From IMG/VR virus record IMGVR_UViG_3300025502_000011: a stretch of 64,000 bases of DNA; one strand, 5' to 3'. Shown piece after piece: positions 3,447-26,626 of this stretch. Under the pieces are notes generated by a model. That model was not told the DNA's origin, did no database searches, and saw only the letters and a list, made by a program, of their open reading frames with translations. Each line of letters begins with the position of its first letter. Position 1 is the first letter of the stretch. The position numbers and the translations under genes are program-made. Source of the stretch: a virus.

Positions 3447-4052
3447 TTACCACTCTACTATGGATAATTGTTTTGGGTCCCGACCTATCTCTTTAATCTC
3501 CGCCAAACATTCCTTCATGGTTATTCCCACTTGGTCCTTCGAAGATTGAATCACACCATCTGGGTTTACGCAGCACTCGACCGCATTCTTGAATCCAAAC
3601 TGGGGCTCATCCCACCTTAAAGTGCGCTCCACTTTTGGGTTGTACTTCCCTGCTACTTTATAATGCATAATGCAATCTAATGAACAAAAGAAACCATGCG
3701 CAAATCCTTTGGGGATGTACAGCTGTTTCTTATTGTCTCCAGACAATTCGAACTCTGCGTGCTGAGTAAATGTTTTTGAGTATGGGCGCAAGTCTACGAT
3801 AAAATCCGTGACGCTACCCTGTATTACACTAACAAGCTTTGCTTGGGCATGTGGTGGGAGCTGGTAATGAAGCCCTCTTAGAGTGCCTCTGGTGGAGTGA
3901 GATATGTTATCTTGGATAAACACTGGGGCTGCTCCAGTAGCTAATGCAAACTTCTCGTGATTGAATGATTCAAAAAATGAGCCTCGTATATCTTTAAAAA
4001 CTTTAGGTGTTATAATGTATACTCCTTCAAACTTTGTATTCTCTATCTCCAT
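3447..4052 (-). CDS. rmlC: dTDP-4-dehydrorhamnose 3,5-epimerase
   Basis: D.RG.F.E, QDN.S.S..GTLRGLHYQ, QAKLVSV..G, IPKGFAHGF motifs. Confidence 0.92.
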   Translation of the reverse strand: MEIENTKFEGVYIITPKVFKDIRGSFFESFNHEKFALATGAAPVFIQDNISHSTRGTLRGLHYQLPPHAQAKLVSVIQGSVTDFIVDLRPYSKTFTQHAEFELSGDNKKQLYIPKGFAHGFFCSLDCIMHYKVAGKYNPKVERTLRWDEPQFGFKNAVECCVNPDGVIQSSKDQVGITMKECLAEIKEIGRDPKQLSIVEW

Positions 4053-16019: not shown

Positions 16020-16041
16020 AGCTTTCGTTTTTTTTATTGTT

Positions 16042-16132
16042 TGGTGAACGGAATAGGAATCGAACCTACAACTTTTCTTATGGCCGCTAAGCCATCTAGT
16101 TTTGCGCCTTCCATCCTTTTAAGTACTCGTTC
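16042..16132 (-). tRNA. Degenerate tRNA-like gene with encoded CCA
   Basis: T-arm GTAGG TTCGATT CCTAT, acceptor GAACGAG/TCCGTTC, ACCA end; no canonical anticodon arm could be resolved. Confidence 0.4.
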
Positions 16133-16173
16133 GAACATTTCCTTAAAAATCTTGGTGCAATCCGCCCATGTTG

Positions 16174-16225
16174 TGGCGTGGGGAGAAACGAATCTCACGC
16201 GAATCTTCTTTCAGATTCTCACGCC
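16174..16225 (-). ncRNA. Mini tRNA-like RNA, family B copy 1
   Basis: GGCGTG-AGAATCT gaaaga AGATTCGC-GTGAGA TTCGTT TCTCCC-CACGCC-A. Confidence 0.65.
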
Positions 16226-16285
16226 ATGTGGGGGAAGTTGTTTATGAGAACAGCGCCTCCCCAAGCATCTCACTGCTCATTATAA

Positions 16286-16452
16286 TGGTCCCGCGAGAGG
16301 GTTCTGCCCCCCATCATTTCTTCAACATCAACTACTAACTCACTCTTGTGGCCACGCAAGTGAGTTTTTGTGTTTGCATCCCGAACTGAGTCCTTTCGGT
16401 TCGTCTTCCACATTATCAGTGTGGTGCTTTAACATATCTAAGCTATCGCAGG
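16286..16452 (-). tRNA. tRNA-Ile(GAU) with a ~90-nt insertion in the variable region
   Basis: CCTGCGA/TCGCGGG acceptor plus ACCA, intact CCACA CTGATAA TGTGG arm, non-canonical T-loop (GCAGAA). Confidence 0.65.
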
Positions 16453-16458
16453 AAATTG

Positions 16459-16601
16459 TCCTGGAGGAAGGGCTCGAACCCCCGACCCCCACCGTTCGAT
16501 TCCAATTCTCTACTTCACAACCCTTGTGGCCACGCAGGTTGCGTTTCAATCCTTTTCCTCATTTATCAGGGTGGTGCTCTAACCAACTGAGCTACTCCAG
16601 G
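16459..16601 (-). tRNA. tRNA-Ile(GAU) with a 69-nt insertion at position 37/38
   Basis: CCTGGAG/CTCCAGG acceptor and canonical D and T arms; removing 16495-16563 restores CCACC CTGATAC GGTGG. Confidence 0.8.
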
Positions 16602-16605
16602 AAGT

Positions 16606-16650
16606 GCCGCTAACAGGAATCTCACCTATTCTAGTGCTAATGCAAGCGGC
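16606..16650 (-). ncRNA. Mini tRNA-like RNA, family A copy 1
   Basis: GCCGCT-TGCATTAGCACTAG-AATAGG TGAGATT CCTGTT-AGCGGC. Confidence 0.75.
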
Positions 16651-16651
16651 G

Positions 16652-16731
16652 TGGTGGTGAGGGAAGGACTTGAACCTTCGACCTCCAGGGTTTTAAAGCC
16701 TGGTGCTCTGAACCAACTGAGCTACCTCACC
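16652..16731 (-). tRNA. tRNA with a 9-nt anticodon loop (CUUUAAAAC)
   Basis: GGTGAGG/CCTCACC-A-CCA; CCAGG CTTTAAAAC CCTGG; canonical D and T arms. Confidence 0.8.
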
Positions 16732-16735
16732 AAGA

Positions 16736-16780
16736 GGCCCCAGGAAGACTTTCTCTTCCTCTAGTGCTAATGCAGGGGCC
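16736..16780 (-). ncRNA. Mini tRNA-like RNA, family A copy 2
   Basis: GGCCCC-TGCATTAGCACTAG-AGGAAG AGAAAGT CTTCCT-GGGGCC. Confidence 0.75.
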
Positions 16781-16781
16781 G

Positions 16782-16835
16782 TGGTGGCGTGGGAAGAAAC
16801 GAATCTCCCGCGAATCCCTAATGGACTCTCACGCC
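16782..16835 (-). ncRNA. Mini tRNA-like RNA, family B copy 2 (CCA encoded)
   Basis: GGCGTG-AGAGTCC atta GGGATTCGC-GGGAGA TTCGTT TCTTCC-CACGCC-ACCA. Confidence 0.7.
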
Positions 16836-16871
16836 TTTTTTAAATTCCAACACGTCAATGAACTTTTGTTG

Positions 16872-16945
16872 TGACAGGAGAAAGATTCGAACTCTCGTCC
16901 CCAGGTTTTTAAGGCCTGGTGCTCTAACCGCTGAGCTATCCCGTC
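16872..16945 (-). tRNA. tRNA with a 9-nt anticodon loop (CCUUAAAAA)
   Basis: GACGGGA/TCCTGTC-A; CCAGG CCTTAAAAA CCTGG; T-arm GAGAG TTCGAAT CTTTC. Confidence 0.8.
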
Positions 16946-16994
16946 TGGTGGCGGATTCAGGACTTTAACCTGAACTGGTGCTTATGCATCCGCC
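16946..16994 (-). ncRNA. Mini tRNA-like RNA, family A copy 3 (CCA encoded)
   Basis: GGCGGA-TGCATAAGCACCAG-TTCAGG TTAAAGT CCTGAA-TCCGCC-ACCA; its CCA abuts G1 of the next tRNA. Confidence 0.8.
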
Positions 16995-16998
16995 GTAG

Positions 16999-17045
16999 TG
17001 GTGCGGGGACAATCGAATGTCCCATGAGCCAAAAGCTCTCGCACC
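16999..17045 (-). ncRNA. Mini tRNA-like RNA, family B copy 3
   Basis: GGTGCG-AGAGC ttttg GCTCAT-GGGACA TTCGAT TGTCCC-CGCACC-A. Confidence 0.7.
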
Positions 17046-19637: not shown

Positions 19638-20086
19638 GCAGAATCCTAAAGGACATGCTTACTGAGACCAGTAAAGGGCGGACAAAGTACAGCCAGGGTC
19701 GTATCTACTTGTTCGTTTCCTTTGGTGTTTTTTTTCTCTTGAATGTCATTTTAGCATTTTGTGCTATTACGAATTATACTCTAGAGGATAAAGACACACT
19801 TCTTGTGGTGTCTGAGAACTTGAGATGGGCTTTAGGTACGTTTGGACTCTATGTTCTTGGCGGTAAAGGCATTGGTGCTTTTAGGGATAAACAAACTGGA
19901 ATATCAAATGACTACCAGCACGAAGCTCAATACCCTAGCGGAGGTTATTATCCGCCATATGGAGGCCACTCGCACCCTGGGGGAGGGAAGCCGACCTTTG
20001 ATGATGCTGACACATATCACGATGATTATTCAGACTCTCCTAATGAGGACGAGTATTATGCGCAGGACGATGAAGAGGTGGATTAA
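19634..20086 (+). CDS. Membrane protein (holin-like topology) with an acidic tail
   Basis: KYSQGRIYL followed by two TM segments. Confidence 0.55.
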   Translation: MSRILKDMLTETSKGRTKYSQGRIYLFVSFGVFFLLNVILAFCAITNYTLEDKDTLLVVSENLRWALGTFGLYVLGGKGIGAFRDKQTGISNDYQHEAQYPSGGYYPPYGGHSHPGGGKPTFDDADTYHDDYSDSPNEDEYYAQDDEEVD

Positions 20087-20430
20087 ATTTTTCTACTAAG
20101 CGTTTTTTCCCAATCCGACTGGGCTTTTTTACGCTCCACTAAGAAGTTGGCGCTAACTTCTTTTTCTTTACATTCAGTTAAAAAAGCATCCTCTATTGAA
20201 AGGTCAAACCTAAACCATTCTCTCCAATGATGATTGGCGGTTTTTGAAATATGCATCAACTGCTCAACCTCTTTGTAATTACAAGTGCTATAGTAGTTTA
20301 TTAGATGAAGTTGGGTTGGGTTTCCAGTTTGAAGTTCTCCTAGCCTGGCTTTAGGGTGGTTAGATGTGTGTCCTATTTTATATAGGTCCGTATCTCCTTG
20401 TCGCACTAGATAAACATATCCTTTTCTCAT
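20083..20430 (-). CDS. GIY-YIG family protein (T5 orf172/MUG113-like)
   Basis: GYVYLV...LYKIGHT..P..RL.ELQTGNP...EWF. Confidence 0.85.
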   Translation of the reverse strand: MRKGYVYLVRQGDTDLYKIGHTSNHPKARLGELQTGNPTQLHLINYYSTCNYKEVEQLMHISKTANHHWREWFRFDLSIEDAFLTECKEKEVSANFLVERKKAQSDWEKTLSRKI

Positions 20431-20463
20431 AAAGAAGAATACTCTACATCGATGTAAAAGTAA

Positions 20464-20499
20464 AGAAAACCCTGCCAAAATTAATCGACAGGGTTTTCT
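20464..20499 (-). terminator. Intrinsic terminator-like hairpin
   Basis: AGAAAACCCTG...CAGGGTTTTCT. Confidence 0.6.
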
Positions 20500-20601
20500 A
20501 AAAGCTTTTAATCCTTGTGTGACCTAAGTGATTGGCATCCACCCGTAGGTGAACCGATGTGTTTTTCGGGGATACACGTTTGCCACAAGTACTATTATCC
20601 C

Positions 20602-22122
20602 TTATTCCTTAGTTGCAAGCTCAGCAAAATCAACATAATTGTTGATAGTGTTGATAAGCGCTCTTTTGTCGACTTCTAGATTGTCAATGACATCAAAAAT
20701 CTTTTCAGAGAATCCTCTTAGCGCGAATACGTTCTTCTCTGGGAACTGCATGCTTCCGCTTGCAGCCAAGTTGAACTCGTAAACTTTACAGTCCTGAGCA
20801 CCGTACTTCTTCTTGTACGCTGCAAACTGAGTTTTTGGAGTATTGTACTCCATCCACGCTTGCATGTCCGAGAAGATGAATACACGGTCGTATTTCGCCT
20901 TCATCTTAACGAAGATGTCTTGGAAGTTCGTTCCGTGACCAACCCTGTACTTGCCAACGTTGCCGTAGCCTTGGTTTGTATCAACAATCCAGTTTGCCAT
21001 ACCCATTACTGAGTCATTCACGTTAACTGGAAGGTACATTGCGTGTGTTCCAAACGACATTACATCAGCATCACTAGCCTTGGCCATCATGGCTCCAAAT
21101 AGAGCTGCCACTTTATTCCTGTAAGTTTTACCTCCAGCAATTGGGCAATCCATAGAACCTGACAGGTCAATTACGACTGCAGTGTTTCCATCAAACTTTG
21201 GAATGTTAGAACAAGCTAGGTCTACGGCGGTGTTAAGCGCTCTTTGAACTTTCTTAGACTTTGTTCCAGTCAACACTGTAATCTCGTCGAGTGCAGTGAT
21301 GTATCTGAATGGAAGAATCAGTGACTTCTTAATTCTTGCCTCTGTAGTCAACAGCTCGCATGCCTTGTTAAGAACCTCGTCAGAAGCATCTTGGATGATG
21401 TTTCTAAGGTTTCTTAGAAGAGCAAACTGTCCAATCTTACCTGACATAACCAAGTCAGACCAAGCCTCAGCTTTGTTTGCGGCTTTCTCCTCAGAGGTCT
21501 TCGCTCCCTGGCCAGCTGCGGACAGCTTAGACTCGAAAGTGTTTTCACTCTTTAGGGTTCCAGCAACAAGCTCGGCAAGTGCCTTCTCGTTTCTAGCCGT
21601 TCCTTTTGGACGAACCAAGTTTACAACGTCAACAAGCGATACTTCATTCTTGTCTCCTCTGTACTTGGCAAGCTGGTATGCATCGAACTTTCCGAAAGCT
21701 TTCTTGAAACCTTTCTTTAGCGCGTTTGGCAAAGATGCTTTCTTACCCTCTCTACCGAAGTAGTAGGACATAATCTCAGTCATGTCGTCTGGACGACGTA
21801 CAATAGCTGCGTAAAACTCTTTAGCCCAGGCCTTACCTGAGGCGTGCTTAGCGATTTCACCCGCAAGTACGTGGGTGATAGAACGCATTCCAAACTCGTT
21901 ACGGGCATAGACAGCCGCCTTTGCTGCGAACTCTGGGTCCACTTTGCTAAGAACGGATGTCAACTCCTTTATTTGGTCTCCTGCCTTCGAATAGAAGTCA
22001 TCAGACACAAACGAGTTCAACAGAATCGTCACAAGCTCTAACTCTGGAGTCGACTTATAAGCCTCTCCTCCCGCTTTGTTGGTAGTCATTTCTACCTTTG
22101 ATTTTTCGTTAAATTTTGACAT
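20602..22122 (-). CDS. Ro60/TROVE-domain RNA-binding protein
   Basis: TTNKAGGEAY, FAAKAAVYAR.EFGMRS, FDAYQLAKY, FALLRNLRNI, LPFRY..A and vWA IDLSGSM motifs; likely start MSKFNEK. Confidence 0.93.
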   Translation of the reverse strand: MSKFNEKSKVEMTTNKAGGEAYKSTPELELVTILLNSFVSDDFYSKAGDQIKELTSVLSKVDPEFAAKAAVYARNEFGMRSITHVLAGEIAKHASGKAWAKEFYAAIVRRPDDMTEIMSYYFGREGKKASLPNALKKGFKKAFGKFDAYQLAKYRGDKNEVSLVDVVNLVRPKGTARNEKALAELVAGTLKSENTFESKLSAAGQGAKTSEEKAANKAEAWSDLVMSGKIGQFALLRNLRNIIQDASDEVLNKACELLTTEARIKKSLILPFRYITALDEITVLTGTKSKKVQRALNTAVDLACSNIPKFDGNTAVVIDLSGSMDCPIAGGKTYRNKVAALFGAMMAKASDADVMSFGTHAMYLPVNVNDSVMGMANWIVDTNQGYGNVGKYRVGHGTNFQDIFVKMKAKYDRVFIFSDMQAWMEYNTPKTQFAAYKKKYGAQDCKVYEFNLAASGSMQFPEKNVFALRGFSEKIFDVIDNLEVDKRALINTINNYVDFAELATKE

Positions 22123-22226
22123 CTCGTCGTTGTTTATAATTGTTGTTATTCTATTAATTCTTTGTTTTTGGCGCATAAAAAAAAAGCACCACATCTTTGC
22201 AGAGGGTGCTTTTTCGAAAAATATAA

Positions 22227-22306
22227 TGCCTTGGTCGGGTAATCCTGGAGAGAGTGGTTTTTCTATTTGTAGTTGAAGTAACTCATCTCCTTAACACCGT
22301 AAGGCA
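22227..22306 (-). ncRNA. Candidate Ro-associated (Y-like) RNA 1
   Basis: Ends pair (TGCCTT/AAGGCA; GGAGA/TCTCC) around GAGTTACTTCAACT. Confidence 0.55.
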
Positions 22307-22317
22307 AATAACTGTTC

Positions 22318-22571
22318 GAGGTAAAATAGAGGGGGGTGATAAGGTTGAAAGTTCTTTCTCTTTCGGTCATACGGTCTACCGTAATCGTGATTGTACTGTT
22401 CCAATCCGTCACCAGCTCATTAATGGCTGAAAATCCAAGTCTATCCTTGGTGTCTGGGTTTCTGTTTATGGTCTTTTCGAAACGGTCTTTCGACTATTCC
22501 AAAAAAGCCTGTTTGCTTGTTTGTTTATAGTTGAAGTAACCCCTAGGAAACGTCAAAAACGTTCACACCTC
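22318..22571 (-). ncRNA. Candidate Ro-associated (Y-like) RNA 2 with a multi-hairpin insert
   Basis: GAGGTGTGAA/TTTTACCTC closing stem, GGGTTACTTCAACT motif, at least five short internal hairpins. Confidence 0.5.
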
Positions 22572-22583
22572 TCAACACTCTGA

Positions 22584-22663
22584 AAGTCGTAAACTCTTGG
22601 TATATTTTGGAAAAAAATTGTTAAATGTGGAAATGAAGTAACTCTCTTTACCATTCTTACCTT
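22584..22663 (-). ncRNA. Candidate Ro-associated (Y-like) RNA 3
   Basis: GAGTTACTTCA motif; TGGTA/TACCA pairing. Confidence 0.45.
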
Positions 22664-22919
22664 AAGTTGTATTTCAATATGGCAATCGGAACCGTTGTTC
22701 CTACCAGTGAAATTAAATAGGGACAAATTTTAGAAACTCGTCTCTCGTTCAATCGCTCTGCAAATATAATTATGTTTTTGGAAACCACAAGCATAATTGC
22801 AAAAAAAATATACTTTTCTTATAACTATCTGACTATTAGGGTTAAAAGATTACAGCGGTGGAATAATTTATGAGTCTTTAGATATTATCGTTATAGATTC
22901 ATATTTATAGAAAAGAAAA

Positions 22920-23195
22920 GTGATGAGCGAGAAGCAAGAACAACCAGATAGCGCACCTGATGCGCCACAAACTCCGCAGACTACGGAATTTCAAATAGAA
23001 GAATCGGGAGAAGTAAGCATGCTTGAAATGGCTTGCCTTATCAACAGTATTTTAGATTATTATACAGACGAGTCTGAAATTGATGGCGATGATTGGAAAA
23101 AGAAGACAGGCGTTGTCAAGGGGTTTGTTCCAGAAAGCGTTGATAAAGAAGTTGAAAAAGCTTTTGTGGCTCAGTTGAGAAAGTTTCAAGACTGA
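22920..23195 (+). CDS. Hypothetical acidic protein
   Basis: 91-aa ORF; ATATTTATA motif upstream. Confidence 0.6.
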   Translation: MMSEKQEQPDSAPDAPQTPQTTEFQIEESGEVSMLEMACLINSILDYYTDESEIDGDDWKKKTGVVKGFVPESVDKEVEKAFVAQLRKFQD

Positions 23196-23198
23196 TGT

Positions 23199-24059
23199 AT
23201 GTTCGAAGATACTAATCTACACTTGTTTTTAGCAGCAACTGTCCCAGCGTTAAGTTATTTGGGTTTTATCTACTTTTTTGGTCGAAAACTAATCAACTGG
23301 AAATCATCTATCATATATCTCCTTTTCGGATTTGTGTCCATTTTTTTTGTAGAAATGATTCAGTTTATTTTCCCACATATTCAAGACTTAATGTTCGTGA
23401 ATAAAGATTTGGTGGAGATTGATTTTAATACAATGCAAGTAAACTACTCTCCTACCGTGTGGAGTTGGGTGTGTTTAGCTTTCATTCAAATTGCTTTGCT
23501 AGAAGAAATTATTAAGGGGGCAGCTTTTAAACTTACTTCACTGCCTAGACGTCACAAGCTACGGAAAGAGAAGGACTCTTTGTTCGCAATCATGTTTTAT
23601 AGTTGTTGCGTGGCTGTGGGGTTTGCAATTTTTGAAAATGTTACCTATGCCATGAGATTCCTTCCTGCTCAAGGAGATGTTGCTACTCAATATTTAATGT
23701 CTCAACGTAGTATTTTTTCAGTCACCTCACACATGATAGCAGGATTAATTATGGGCTATGGTTTTGCTGTAGGTAGCATTAAGTCTGGGTTTAGGAAGAT
23801 TCTCTATCCCTTAATTGGTTTTTTTGGAGGAATGATGTATCACGGGACTTTTGACTACTTACTAATAACTGCCGATAGCCACGAGTCGTTTGAACTGTTT
23901 AAAGGATACTTTATCCATCTGCCAACAACAATGTTGATGGTTATGAGTCTGGTGTTTACATTTCTATTGGGGTCGCATCTTCGCTCTTACTCGTTGCGGT
24001 ATAATAGAGTTCATCGAAAACGAAAACTATCAACTCTAAAAATGAAAAGCTCTGATTAA
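23199..24059 (+). CDS. prsW: PrsW-family intramembrane metalloprotease
   Basis: Multi-TM protein with EE.IK, GFA.FEN..Y, H and HG.FD motifs. Confidence 0.85.
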   Translation: MFEDTNLHLFLAATVPALSYLGFIYFFGRKLINWKSSIIYLLFGFVSIFFVEMIQFIFPHIQDLMFVNKDLVEIDFNTMQVNYSPTVWSWVCLAFIQIALLEEIIKGAAFKLTSLPRRHKLRKEKDSLFAIMFYSCCVAVGFAIFENVTYAMRFLPAQGDVATQYLMSQRSIFSVTSHMIAGLIMGYGFAVGSIKSGFRKILYPLIGFFGGMMYHGTFDYLLITADSHESFELFKGYFIHLPTTMLMVMSLVFTFLLGSHLRSYSLRYNRVHRKRKLSTLKMKSSD

Positions 24060-24495
24060 GGTCTGAAAGAATAATGACACCGTCGTGGTTCTTTATAGAA
24101 AAGCGCGTGTTTATATCTAAGGTTAAGTCTCGAAACATCTTTCTAGGCTCTTCTCCTTCTTTGAGGGTGAAGTCTGCAAAAAAAGGATTTATTACTTCAT
24201 TTTCGTGAGATACAACTATTTCTCTCCTGACTGTGATATTAGAAACATCTTGAAAAAAAGACATATCCATAGCGGAGTAAACGGTGTTCACCACATAGTA
24301 ATCCTCGCAAGTATAATTTTCAATAAAGTCCTTTATGTGAAACATTAAGTTCATTATCTCCGCTACAGTCACTCCTGGGTCGATAAATGTTTTCTCTGAT
24401 AGATTTGCCAGTAAAAAGCTGGGTAGCTCATCGCCACCCAGCTTTACTGTCTGCCCGTCAAACTCTAGTACGTTATTCGGCTTTATTTTTAGCAT
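23956..24495 (-). CDS. Hypothetical protein
   Basis: 179-aa ORF. Confidence 0.65.
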   Translation of the reverse strand: MLKIKPNNVLEFDGQTVKLGGDELPSFLLANLSEKTFIDPGVTVAEIMNLMFHIKDFIENYTCEDYYVVNTVYSAMDMSFFQDVSNITVRREIVVSHENEVINPFFADFTLKEGEEPRKMFRDLTLDINTRFSIKNHDGVIILSDLNQSFSFLELIVFVFDELYYTATSKSEDATPIEM

Positions 24496-26518
24496 TCGTA
24501 TTTCTTTTTTGGATAAACACCTTTTTATCTTTCTCTCTATAAGAGAAGGTTATTGAGGCTCCTTCTTTTATTTCGCCCTTGAGGACAGCTTGCGCAAAAG
24601 TGTTCTCCAAATGTGATGTTATAGCTCTTTTAAGGGGTCTTGCTCCAAACTTCTTATCATAACCTACGTCTGCTATGAAATCTTTCACACTGTCTGACAC
24701 TTTAACCTTATAACCTCTTTGTTCAATTCTGCTTATAACAACTTGTAGTTCCAAGCTAACAATGTCCATTATCTCGTCCTTTGTAAGTGGCATGAAGATT
24801 ATTTTCTCGTCAATGCGGTTGATTAGCTCTGGTCTGAAAAAATTTCCAAGCTCTCCCATGATAAGTTTCTCAATATCTTCTTGCTCTGTTTCTTTTGCAG
24901 CAAATCCAAGTGATTTATTCTTAAACAGCTTATCAGTTCCAATATTTGATGTCATAATGATGACAGTGTTTTTAAAGTTAATCTCTTGCCCATGATTATC
25001 CGTCAGTTTGCCTTCGTCAAAAATTTGAAGCATAATATTGAATACGTCTGGATGCGCTTTCTCTATTTCATCAAACAATAGTATGGAGTAAGGTTGGTTC
25101 TTAATTTTTTCAGTCAACAAACCCTTGTCTTCATGGCCAATGTAACCAGGGGGAGACCCAATCAACTTAGCGACCGATATCTTCTCCATGTATTCACTCA
25201 TATCAAACCTAATGAAAGACTCTGGGAGGTCAAACATGTACTCAGCTAGCATTTTGCTTAAGTATGTCTTACCTACTCCTGTTGAACCTAAAAACAATAA
25301 AGATGCAATTGGTTTGTTTGGGTCCTGTATGCCTACGCGAGACCTTTGGACTGCCTCACAAATTTTTTCAATAGCTACTTTCTGTCCGATGACTCTATCT
25401 GAAAGGTATGTTTGCATTTTCAAGAGCTTATTGCTTTCATTATCTGTAAGCTTAGACACAGGTATACCTGTGTGGGATGCGATGATTGCTGCTACGTCTT
25501 TTTTTGTGATAGGTTGTTTGTCATCTTTTAAGGACTGCTTCCATTTTTCAGTCATATTCTGGATGTTCTGCTTAGTGCTTCGCTCTTTATCGCGAAGTTT
25601 TGCTGCGACTTCATATTGCTGCTTCGCTACGGCTTTTTTCTTATCTTGTTCAATCTCTTGAAGACCTTCTTCGGCATCTTTTAGGTCTTTAGGTATTTCT
25701 CTAAATCCAAGCTTTGCTTTTGAGCCGACTTCATCTAAGACATCTATTGCTTTATCTGGGAAATTCCTGTAGTTAATATATCTATCTGACAGCTCAACTA
25801 TAAATTCTAATGTTTCGTCTGAAAATGATACGCCGTGATAATCTTCATAGCGTTCCTTTATTTGTTTTAGAATTTCAACCGTCTGCTTCGCAGTTGGAAC
25901 CGACAGCATGACTTTCTGAAATCTTCTATCAAGCGCTGAGTCATTAGCAATTGTTTTTTTGTGTTCCTCTAAAGTTGTTGCTCCAATAACACGCATTGTA
26001 CCACGAGCTAGCTCTGGTTTAATGATTTGAGATGCATCCATTGAACCAGATGCACCACCAGCTCCCATGAGATTGTGAATTTCATCAATAAATATGATAA
26101 CATCGTCATTTTTTACTGCTTCGTCAATAATAGCCTTCATTCGCTCTTCGAACTGGCCACGGTACTTTGTTCCTCCGACCAAGGAGGACAAATTTAATTC
26201 AATAATTCTTTTATTGAGTAACCATCTATCAGTTTTGCGATTTACGATTCGCAAAGCCAGCCCTTCGACTAATGCTGTTTTTCCTGTTCCAGCCTCTCCT
26301 ACGATTATGGGGTTATTCTTCTTTCTTTTGTTGAGAATTTGGACCATCATGTCGATTTCTTCTTCTCGCCCTATTACAGGGTCGAGTTCTCCTTTTGCTG
26401 CTAGCAGCGTTAGGTCTCTACCAAAATGTTCTAATACCTGCGTGGAACCCTCTGTGAAAGAAGGGCCCATCCCTTTTTCATCGTCATCAGGGTCTTGAGA
26501 AAATGCTCGTCCTGCCAT
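24473..26518 (-). CDS. clpB: ClpB/ClpC-type double AAA+ ATPase lacking the N-terminal Clp-N domain
   Basis: LDPVIGR, GEAGTGKT, KYRGQFEERMK, FIDEIH, GSTGVGKT, LFDEIEKAH, GARPLKR. Confidence 0.9.
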   Translation of the reverse strand: MAGRAFSQDPDDDEKGMGPSFTEGSTQVLEHFGRDLTLLAAKGELDPVIGREEEIDMMVQILNKRKKNNPIIVGEAGTGKTALVEGLALRIVNRKTDRWLLNKRIIELNLSSLVGGTKYRGQFEERMKAIIDEAVKNDDVIIFIDEIHNLMGAGGASGSMDASQIIKPELARGTMRVIGATTLEEHKKTIANDSALDRRFQKVMLSVPTAKQTVEILKQIKERYEDYHGVSFSDETLEFIVELSDRYINYRNFPDKAIDVLDEVGSKAKLGFREIPKDLKDAEEGLQEIEQDKKKAVAKQQYEVAAKLRDKERSTKQNIQNMTEKWKQSLKDDKQPITKKDVAAIIASHTGIPVSKLTDNESNKLLKMQTYLSDRVIGQKVAIEKICEAVQRSRVGIQDPNKPIASLLFLGSTGVGKTYLSKMLAEYMFDLPESFIRFDMSEYMEKISVAKLIGSPPGYIGHEDKGLLTEKIKNQPYSILLFDEIEKAHPDVFNIMLQIFDEGKLTDNHGQEINFKNTVIIMTSNIGTDKLFKNKSLGFAAKETEQEDIEKLIMGELGNFFRPELINRIDEKIIFMPLTKDEIMDIVSLELQVVISRIEQRGYKVKVSDSVKDFIADVGYDKKFGARPLKRAITSHLENTFAQAVLKGEIKEGASITFSYREKDKKVFIQKRNTNAKNKAE

Positions 26519-26626
26519 TTTTTTATGTCTATTGTTATATTGTAGTACAACAATAGACATAAAATGGGACAAATTCAAATTTATTCATGATGCCCACAAA
26601 TCGTTTTTACGTTTGTGGGTAGTTCA

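Follow-up and report, generated by a model that had tools for sequence, protein, structure and literature searches.

A palindromic-loop hairpin module common to two tandem tRNA-Ile genes of a salt-lake phage lineage

Transfer RNA (tRNA) genes of phages are usually seen as simple codon-usage helpers. We analyzed a stretch of 64,000 nucleotides (nt) from the large-phage IMG/VR virus record IMGVR_UViG_3300025502_000011, referred to as a whole as the window, in which both tRNA-Ile genes hold one conserved hairpin module whose conservation exceeds that of parts of the tRNA. The genes belong to a dense run of tRNAs and tRNA-like RNAs on the minus strand (~16040-17045), which is flanked by a PTH2-like gene upstream and a small methyltransferase gene downstream. 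One of them, here called Ile1 (16459-16601, minus strand), was identified by Rfam and by an ARAGORN intron call as a canonical-bodied tRNA-Ile(GAU) with a 69-nt insert in its anticodon loop; it matches the Rfam tRNA model at 49.9 bits with an insert of 69-70 nt. Its tandem neighbor at a distance of 5-6 nt, Ile2 (16286-16452, minus strand), is a tRNA-Ile(GAU)-derived gene of 167 nt with a giant variable arm, delineated from the sequence and from the consensus fold of 8 orthologues. An earlier annotation made from the letters alone (the sequence-only reading) had placed a tRNA-Ile(GAU) with an intact anticodon arm at this locus, and the gene is as it described, on the minus strand. The source record is a linear virus sequence of 141,051 base pairs (bp), estimated to be ~64% complete, and the 24 sequencing runs that contain this DNA are all salt-lake DNA metagenomes, with no RNA run listed.

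The tRNA body of Ile2 and its 95-nt arm

The cloverleaf of Ile2 (all positions being on the minus strand) is closed by a 7-bp acceptor stem, assigned from sequence and covariation, in which CCUGCGA (16446-16452) pairs with UCGCGGG (16290-16296). It is followed by a D arm with the stem GCUU/AAGC, whose loop (AGAUAUGUUA, 16430-16439) is without the GG pair, and by an anticodon arm, CCACA-CUGAUAA-UGUGG (16408-16424), with a 7-nt loop and the anticodon GAU at 16415-16417. Between the anticodon arm and the T-like arm, both placed by orthologue alignment, extends a structured variable region of 95 nt (16313-16407), which occupies the place of a normal ~5 nt and is of neither class I nor class II size. 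The T-like arm (16298-16312) is short and has the degenerate 7-nt loop GGCAGAA instead of UUCRANY, and the gene ends in A73 (16289) and an encoded CCA (16286-16288). Within the variable region, RNAalifold predicts a base helix (16383-16389 with 16314-16320), which covariation also supports, and a middle helix (16370-16372 with 16330-16332). The arm is tipped by a hairpin (16338-16365), located by module alignment, whose stem (16358-16365 with 16338-16345) carries a 12-nt loop, GCGUGGCCACAA (16346-16357). A mini-hairpin in the same arm, ACCGAAAGGAC (16390-16400), is invariant in all 8 orthologues.

The insertion into the variable loop, already proposed from the sequence, is backed by covariation over the whole cloverleaf. 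Among the 8 orthologues, 96.6% of the cells of the whole fold are paired compared with 85.4% in shuffled alignments, with none of 500 shuffles reaching the observed values, and compensatory changes are found in 19 pairs. In the acceptor stem, 5 of the 7 pairs have changed on both sides while 100% of the cells remain paired; in the base helix of the arm, 5 of 6 pairs show compensatory changes, and the D stem and anticodon stem are both supported by covariation. The middle helix, the tip hairpin and the T stem are also part of the consensus structure. Judging from this comparative evidence, the 95-nt region is a three-helix rod rooted in the variable region and not loose insert sequence.

The window copy of Ile2 receives no ARAGORN tRNA call, whether introns are allowed or not, and its match to Rfam tRNA is only partial (21.4 bits, 16379-16452), below the gathering threshold of 29 bits. 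That the Ile2 family is tRNA-derived is beyond doubt, because the orthologues in lineages L135 and L133 give full-length Rfam tRNA matches above threshold, at 40.9 and 39.5 bits. Like class II tRNAs (tRNA-Leu, -Ser, -Tyr and -Sec; PMC7609411), Ile2 has an extra helical arm between the anticodon and T arms of a cloverleaf. The arms of class II tRNAs measure at least 10 nt (PMC7609411), whereas that of Ile2 has 95 nt with three helices and a GNRA mini-hairpin; moreover, the body of Ile2 is of the isoleucine type (class I), with a degenerate D/T elbow in the lineage of the window. We regard Ile2 as a derivative of tRNA-Ile that has expanded in a new way and file it as a member of none of the known systems compared here and below.

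The orthologues fall into two groups by the state of the elbow and the 3' end. Lineages L133, L134 and L135 have the D-loop GG, a T loop of UUCGAAU or UUCAAUC, and a 3' end of ACGA or ACUA with no CCA, whereas the window, L124, L126 and L129 have no D-loop GG, a T loop of NGCAAUA or GGCAGAA, and a 3' end of ACCA in which CCA is encoded. L132, whose contig is truncated at the 5' end so that the D loop is cut off, has the T loop NGCAAUA and likewise ends in ACCA with CCA encoded. Because end-processing enzymes, the CCA-adding enzyme among them, recognize the tRNA elbow, an encoded CCA would compensate for its loss. Since it is the degenerate-elbow lineages that encode CCA and the canonical-elbow lineages that do not, the pattern suggests that a finished tRNA-type 3' end may matter for a full-length Ile2 RNA. 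Loss of the elbow and gain of CCA are probably a single evolutionary event and hence without statistical weight; they nevertheless form a small natural experiment on the requirements for finishing a tRNA-like 3' end. In the anticodon loop, all 8 orthologues have CUGAU at positions 32-36, whereas 37/38 can be AA, UA, GU or UU; position 37 is A in the window, while L132 and L134 have U there and L133 and L135 have G. Because bacterial tRNA-Ile normally has A37 and A38, a decoding role for Ile2 appears less secure.

A hairpin module shared by Ile1 and Ile2

The Ile2 insert contains ACUCAC-UUG-CGUGGCCA-CAA-GA-GUGAGU and the Ile1 insert contains GCAACC-UG-CGUGGCCA-CA-AG-GGUUGU, both present as the sequence-only reading had quoted them and with UGGCCA common to the two. 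Each hairpin belongs to a 45-nt module that consists of AAAC, a 7-8-bp stem, the 12-nt loop, the return stem and AGUAG. In Ile1 the module lies at 16507-16551 and its loop at 16524-16535 (minus strand), based on the alignment and fold of 6 orthologues. A 14-mer, UGCGUGGCCACAAG, is common to both inserts and is found at no third site in the 141,051-bp contig; by our own arithmetic, the chance of two inserts of ~70 and ~95 nt sharing a 14-mer is roughly 2e-5. The perfect 8-bp palindrome GTGGCCAC occurs in the contig only in the Ile1 and Ile2 inserts, and a covariance model of the module scores 57.3 and 55.4 bits at the two genes with no other match up to E=10 in the 141 kb. No convincing third hairpin tipped with UGGCCA was found elsewhere in the genome.

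Relatives of the locus were reached through homologues of the adjacent methyltransferase (98-65% identity), whose contigs were examined. The tandem Ile1-Ile2 pair stands directly upstream of the methyltransferase in six further lineages (L124/125, L126-131, L132, L133, L134 and L135), and both genes are thereby kept in seven related metagenomic phage lineages, the window counted. The gene order PTH2-array-methyltransferase is conserved, and the two copies of the palindrome are 176-178 bp apart in every lineage. The hairpin, on whose persistence in homologous loci the sequence-only reading had staked its interpretation, is retained in every recovered locus and in both genes.

Aligned on UGGCCA, 13 hairpin copies from the two paralogues form a gap-free alignment in which Ile1 and Ile2 correspond column for column; each copy consists of 7-8 stem pairs, a single variable non-canonical position and 12 loop nucleotides. 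None of the 13 lacks UGGCCA, and 11 agree over the entire loop; the exceptions are Ile1 of L124, with AAG in place of GCG, and Ile1 of L135, with a fully paired stem that ends in AUGGCCAU. The octamer GUGGCCAC is found in 12 of the 13, and in the remaining copy, Ile1 of L135, A19/U26 stand for G19/C26 so that the palindrome is retained. Around this loop the stem pairs take 3-5 different pair types: 92.3% of the cells are paired compared with 68.5% in shuffles, and 29 cells are changed on both sides. The covariation score of 0.731 compares with 0.261 in shuffles, none of 500 reaching it, and with 0.06-0.22 when the pairing partners are slid. Covarying stems under an unchanging loop had been claimed from the window by itself, and the 13-copy alignment bears this out; the two hairpins share the 12-nt loop and one register and are not differently bulged. 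G·U pairs make up 25 cells, and 120 of 130 cells are paired on the tRNA-sense strand versus 97 of 130 on the opposite strand. Because these G·U cells pair on the tRNA-sense strand and not on the antisense, the hairpin is, as far as the alignment can speak, a structure of the tRNA-sense strand, and most simply of RNA.

Pairwise alignment maps the Ile1 insert to the distal two thirds of the Ile2 arm. The match begins with the AAAC lead-in, continues through the hairpin and AGUAG and, in most lineages, takes in a 3' flank that runs to (U)GGUGGGG. The likeness of the 3' flanks exceeds that of shuffles in L124 (p = 0.005), L133 (0.003) and L134 (0.025) and is borderline in L126 (0.08); neither the window (0.42) nor L135 reaches significance, and homology of the 5' flanks is not significant in any lineage tested (p = 0.07-0.37). 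The GGUGG block serves as the 3' strand of the anticodon stem in Ile1, and its aligned counterpart in Ile2 is used as the 5' half of the T stem. A new UGUGG/GGUGG strand beside the loop closes the anticodon arm of Ile2, and in the base helix the module's 3' flank is paired with 5' sequence specific to Ile2. With this moderate support, Ile1 and Ile2 are probably tandem paralogues with one inherited module, not two insertions of a hairpin. Following a tandem duplication, the anticodon arm of Ile2 would have been closed locally, and the old insert would thereby have become a variable arm. The sequence-only reading had placed the two inserts at different positions: the module is indeed wired into the tRNA at two places, but as one inherited unit and not as separate insertions.

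A more distant contig, L137, encodes a methyltransferase that is 41% identical and has the order PTH2, a single tRNA-Ile(GAU), methyltransferase. Its RNA genes (1066-1244 and 547-619) include this interrupted tRNA-Ile(GAU) and a tRNA with the anticodon CUA. The tRNA-Ile has a 103-nt insert at the same anticodon-loop site, and the insert is tipped by a T-arm-like hairpin (GUUCGAAA loop), not by the UGGCCA hairpin. In that record, the called methyltransferase start overlaps the tRNA and is probably wrong. Because the single tRNA-Ile of L137 is interrupted at the same site, the comparison indicates that the interrupted tRNA-Ile is old in this phage group and that only the closer clade has the UGGCCA module.

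The sequence-only reading had also suggested looking for the hairpin in other phage tRNAs; it is found in Ile1 and Ile2 throughout the closer clade, and none was found outside the clade in IMG/VR or INPHARED. An exact 14-mer scan of IMG/VR returned 114 single chance matches, mostly from one coding family, and 0 hairpins. Further IMG/VR scans returned nothing for the pattern of mini-tRNA linker plus tRNA or for the Ile1-type pattern, and for the Ile2-type pattern a single coding chance match (L136). A metagenome scan anchored on the mini-tRNA linker produced 8 chance matches, all unrelated, and a species-genome scan with the Ile2-type pattern produced one, inside a permease gene. IMG/VR searches for related loci with the protein of each flanking gene found nothing, and blastn against INPHARED phages found ordinary tRNAs only.

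Possible roles of the palindromic loop

The Ile2 element is real, conserved and structurally well supported, and a docking function is what we infer for it. Our preferred reading, held tentatively and at somewhat below an even chance, is that Ile2 is kept as an unspliced RNA whose palindromic loop docks a partner, with loop-loop pairing as the first choice of role, a protein as the second and an excision tag as the third. Ile2 would then be retained as a whole RNA in which a tRNA body displays CUGAU and projects a rigid ~95-nt three-helix arm from its variable region. Selection would act on the 45-nt module, which the tRNA body would carry and provide with a frame for processing, while the loop would serve as a sequence-specific docking site. 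Since UGGCCA is self-complementary and its central GGCC is unable to pair within a single hairpin, the likeliest partner would be another copy of the loop. Ile1 and Ile2 could kiss in a dimeric precursor or after processing; alternatively, two copies of one RNA (Ile1 or Ile2) could be joined, and the loop-loop complex may be read or stabilized by a protein.

Self-duplexes are calculated at -9.1 kcal/mol for UGGCCA (6 bp) and -14.5 kcal/mol for GUGGCCAC (8 bp), and the hexamers of the HIV-1 dimerization initiation site (DIS) give -10.9 and -7.9 kcal/mol in the same calculation. The palindrome and the modeled duplex energy make kissing plausible. Kissing-loop dimerization hairpins are known from the HIV-1 DIS, and the phi29 packaging RNA (pRNA) has intermolecular loops; the hairpins described here resemble them in the self-complementary stretch of at least 6 nt in an apical loop, in the conserved unpaired flanks and in the range of the duplex energy. 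They differ in the 12-nt loop, which can partly close on itself, in the tRNA body as carrier, and in that the dimer is a prediction from sequence. Directly 3' of the Ile2 CCA lies another conserved RNA of ~50 nt (16229-16285, minus strand), which has two hairpins whose loops pair mutually. In 6 lineages, this 6-bp loop-loop pseudoknot has 100% of its cells paired and shows compensatory changes in all 6 of its pairs, the entire structure is 97.6% paired versus 77.6% in shuffles, and Rfam has no match to it. Because its 6-bp loop-loop pairing is compensatory, such pairing is in use within this RNA array. This element, the self-complementary core, the duplex energies and the presence of two tandem copies are the reasons for which loop-loop pairing is our first choice.

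Several points weigh against this preference. The invariant loop flanks (5' GC, 3' AA) are unnecessary for pairing and better fit a protein site. In minimum free energy folds, G19-C26 and U20-A25 can pair within the hairpin and close a GGCC tetraloop, so that the one feature speaking specifically for intermolecular pairing is the central GGCC, which has about 1 chance in 16 of arising. Among the 13 copies, no loop change in one paralogue is matched in the other, and partner covariation is thus lacking. The ~7 lineages are mutually related and the event counts are small, and retention of the arm, the ends of the RNA and its expression are predicted from the DNA sequence.

An invariant loop on a covarying stem could instead be the binding site of one trans-acting protein that serves both RNAs, which we regard as possible but the less probable course; the palindrome would then be incidental or would reflect a dimeric protein. 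The invariance of all 12 loop positions in 11 of 13 copies, including those irrelevant to self-pairing, fits such a site. With the same modest probability for all of them jointly, candidates for the protein are the phage Ro60, the adjacent small methyltransferase, the PTH2-like hydrolase or a host factor, the two flanking genes being in conserved order around the array. The Ro60/TROVE gene (20602-22194) lies 4 kb upstream of the array on the same strand; Ro60 orthologues with 64-92% identity accompany this phage clade, and one Ro60 contig and one array contig share a sequencing run. Among known systems, Ile2 resembles the YrlA-type Y RNA, a tRNA-mimicking partner of bacterial and phage Ro60/Rsr (Chen et al. 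2014, PMC4201824; RF02553), in being a non-decoding tRNA look-alike with an extra protein-docking helix, encoded in a genome with Ro60. YrlA, however, is circularly permuted, has a closed acceptor hairpin and both ends in its Ro-binding stem, and adjoins rsr. The topology of Ile2 is that of a normal tRNA whose acceptor is open and bears CCA; its gene is 4 kb away from Ro60, and RF02553 does not match it. Within Ile2, the invariant ACCGAAAGG agrees with the proposed Rsr motif GNCGAAN0-1G (PMC4201824) in 7 of 8 positions, and CGAAAG recurs in Ro60-adjacent RNA. As ACCGAAAGG is absent from Ile1 and lies outside the shared hairpin, this likeness is a lead about Ile2 and not about the hairpin. The hairpin itself has no motif in common with the three RNAs directly upstream of Ro60, which are likelier Y RNAs, and one Ro60-bearing relative has no tRNA or hairpin within 6.4 kb downstream of Ro60, the side on which the array is situated in the window. 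No specific protein was found linked to the loop.

The hairpin could also mark both inserts for an endonuclease, after which an RNA ligase would rejoin the halves into an ordinary tRNA-Ile. Ile1 with 69 nt in its anticodon loop cannot decode, the distant L137 tRNA-Ile has a different 103-nt insert at the same site, and a protein with OB-fold and RNA_ligase domains is encoded inside the other tRNA cluster of the phage. The nearest published case, judged by its description, is that of the Lak megaphages (Devoto et al. 2019, PMC6784885), whose tRNA genes have conserved "enigmatic" introns. Those too are short non-group-I inserts in tRNA genes of Bacteroidota phages, highly conserved between genomes and with no known removal mechanism (PMC6784885), but they are anticodon-loop introns predicted with eukaryote settings, one of which may encode a tRNA. 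Here, one copy lies in the variable region as an arm supported by covariation, and two tandem paralogues share the module with its palindromic, invariant loop. The anticodon loop of Ile2 is uninterrupted, and excising the homologous segment would destroy the T arm because both the base helix and the T stem use insert-flanking sequence. Inspection of the consensus folds, for which no dedicated search program was run, revealed no bulge-helix-bulge, a motif of two 3-nt bulges with a 4-bp helix between them, at either junction: the Ile2 arm forms an unbroken rod, and purine-rich, unpaired sequence flanks the Ile1 insert. Neither EndA (PF01974) nor RtcB (PF01139) has a match within the 141 kb of this ~64% complete genome, and no group I (RF00028), other intron or ribozyme family matches up to E=10. 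At 69 and 95 nt, the inserts are also shorter than the group I catalytic core (P1-P9), which usually exceeds 200 nt. In addition, U or G at position 37 in several lineages would be odd for a decoding tRNA-Ile even if it were spliced. Short inserts away from 37/38, including some in the variable region, are among the archaeal bulge-helix-bulge tRNA introns (PMC4033280, PMC3978253). Set against these, no such motif was seen at the junctions of the present locus, no splicing endonuclease or RtcB was found in the 141 kb, and the host is probably bacterial, because a Bacteroidota-type promoter lies nearby. We consider an excision tag unlikely overall. A tag for a nuclease or for splicing is least likely and least supported for Ile2, since there the arm is built into the fold; for Ile1 it may apply.

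A related and still less likely route is that the hairpin guides protein-dependent tRNA processing, in which an endonuclease would cut at measured distances from the loop and the OB-fold ligase would reseal the ends; Ile1, and perhaps Ile2, would then become working tRNA-Ile only during infection. Least of all do we expect a DNA-level or selfish element, with GTGGCCAC and the inverted repeats as a DNA site for protein binding or recombination or as the remnant of a mobile hairpin that targets tRNA genes. The palindrome is perfect over 8 bp, its copies keep their 176-178 bp spacing in every lineage, and a T5orf172 (GIY-YIG-like) gene is conserved nearby. The stems, however, covary and are not conserved in sequence, and G·U pairs, which would be A·C mismatches on the other strand, take up 25 of the 130 cells. 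Only two copies exist, both within paralogous genes and none elsewhere in the 141 kb, and scans of IMG/VR, metagenomes and species genomes found no copies outside the clade.

Other ideas were tried and rejected. A peptide open reading frame in the Ile1 insert has no AUG in L126 and is frame-shifted in L133. A hammerhead core would require GA after CUGAU, which is followed by AA, GU or UU and never by GA, and the site is enclosed within the loop of a hairpin. T-box-like UGGN pairing with the NCCA end fails on the discriminator, which is A where the loop would require G; pairing of the loop with the invariant Ile2 block ACCGAAAGGAC fails because the two are not complementary; and a transcription terminator would need a U run, which is missing.

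If it is true that the loop pairs RNAs or docks a protein, these genes would encode tRNA-shaped carriers, a natural "tRNA scaffold", and not plain adaptors. A concrete case would then be added to the unexplained "introns" of megaphage tRNAs.

Neighboring genes and other RNAs of the array

In the loci of L144-L147 and in the window (20083-26578), the order ClpB-like, PrsW protease, a 550-800-bp non-coding gap, Ro60 and T5orf172 nuclease-like is kept, with Ro60 orthologues at 69-92% identity. By inspection of the sequence, a promoter-like TTG ... TAnnTTTG of the Bacteroidota type precedes the RNAs upstream of Ro60, and a site of this kind, TTG...TAtaTTTG, lies at ~22780. The Ro60-adjacent RNA region (22200-22700, minus strand) contains GUCGAAAG, which is a full match to the proposed Rsr motif GNCGAAN0-1G, and also ACCGAAAG and another CGAAAAG.

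The RNA ligase encoded in the second tRNA cluster is a protein of 339 amino acids with a PHA02142 OB-fold domain and an RNA_ligase domain (PF09414, 76 bits). Its gene lies outside the window at ~23528-24547 (minus strand) of the 141-kb record, equivalent to L143:1474-2493, and from its sequence and position within that cluster it may be a tRNA repair or joining enzyme.

Within the array, Rfam YrlA gives sub-threshold matches (22-30 bits, E = 0.009-0.17) at window positions 16892-16996 and at L126:3453-3557 and 3743-3908, which fall on a unit composed of a mini-tRNA and the 5' half of the next tRNA. The tRNA-like gene at 16045-16132 (minus strand) combines a canonical T arm and an encoded CCA with an aberrant middle and matches Rfam tRNA at 23.3 bits (E = 0.12); it is absent from L126 and kept in L124 and L133. 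Two further tRNAs of the window (16872-16945 and 16655-16731, minus strand) score 59 and 69 bits and have 9-nt anticodon loops, CCUUAAAAA and CUUUAAAAC, and ARAGORN labels both as Leu(UAA), at the cost of one stem pair.

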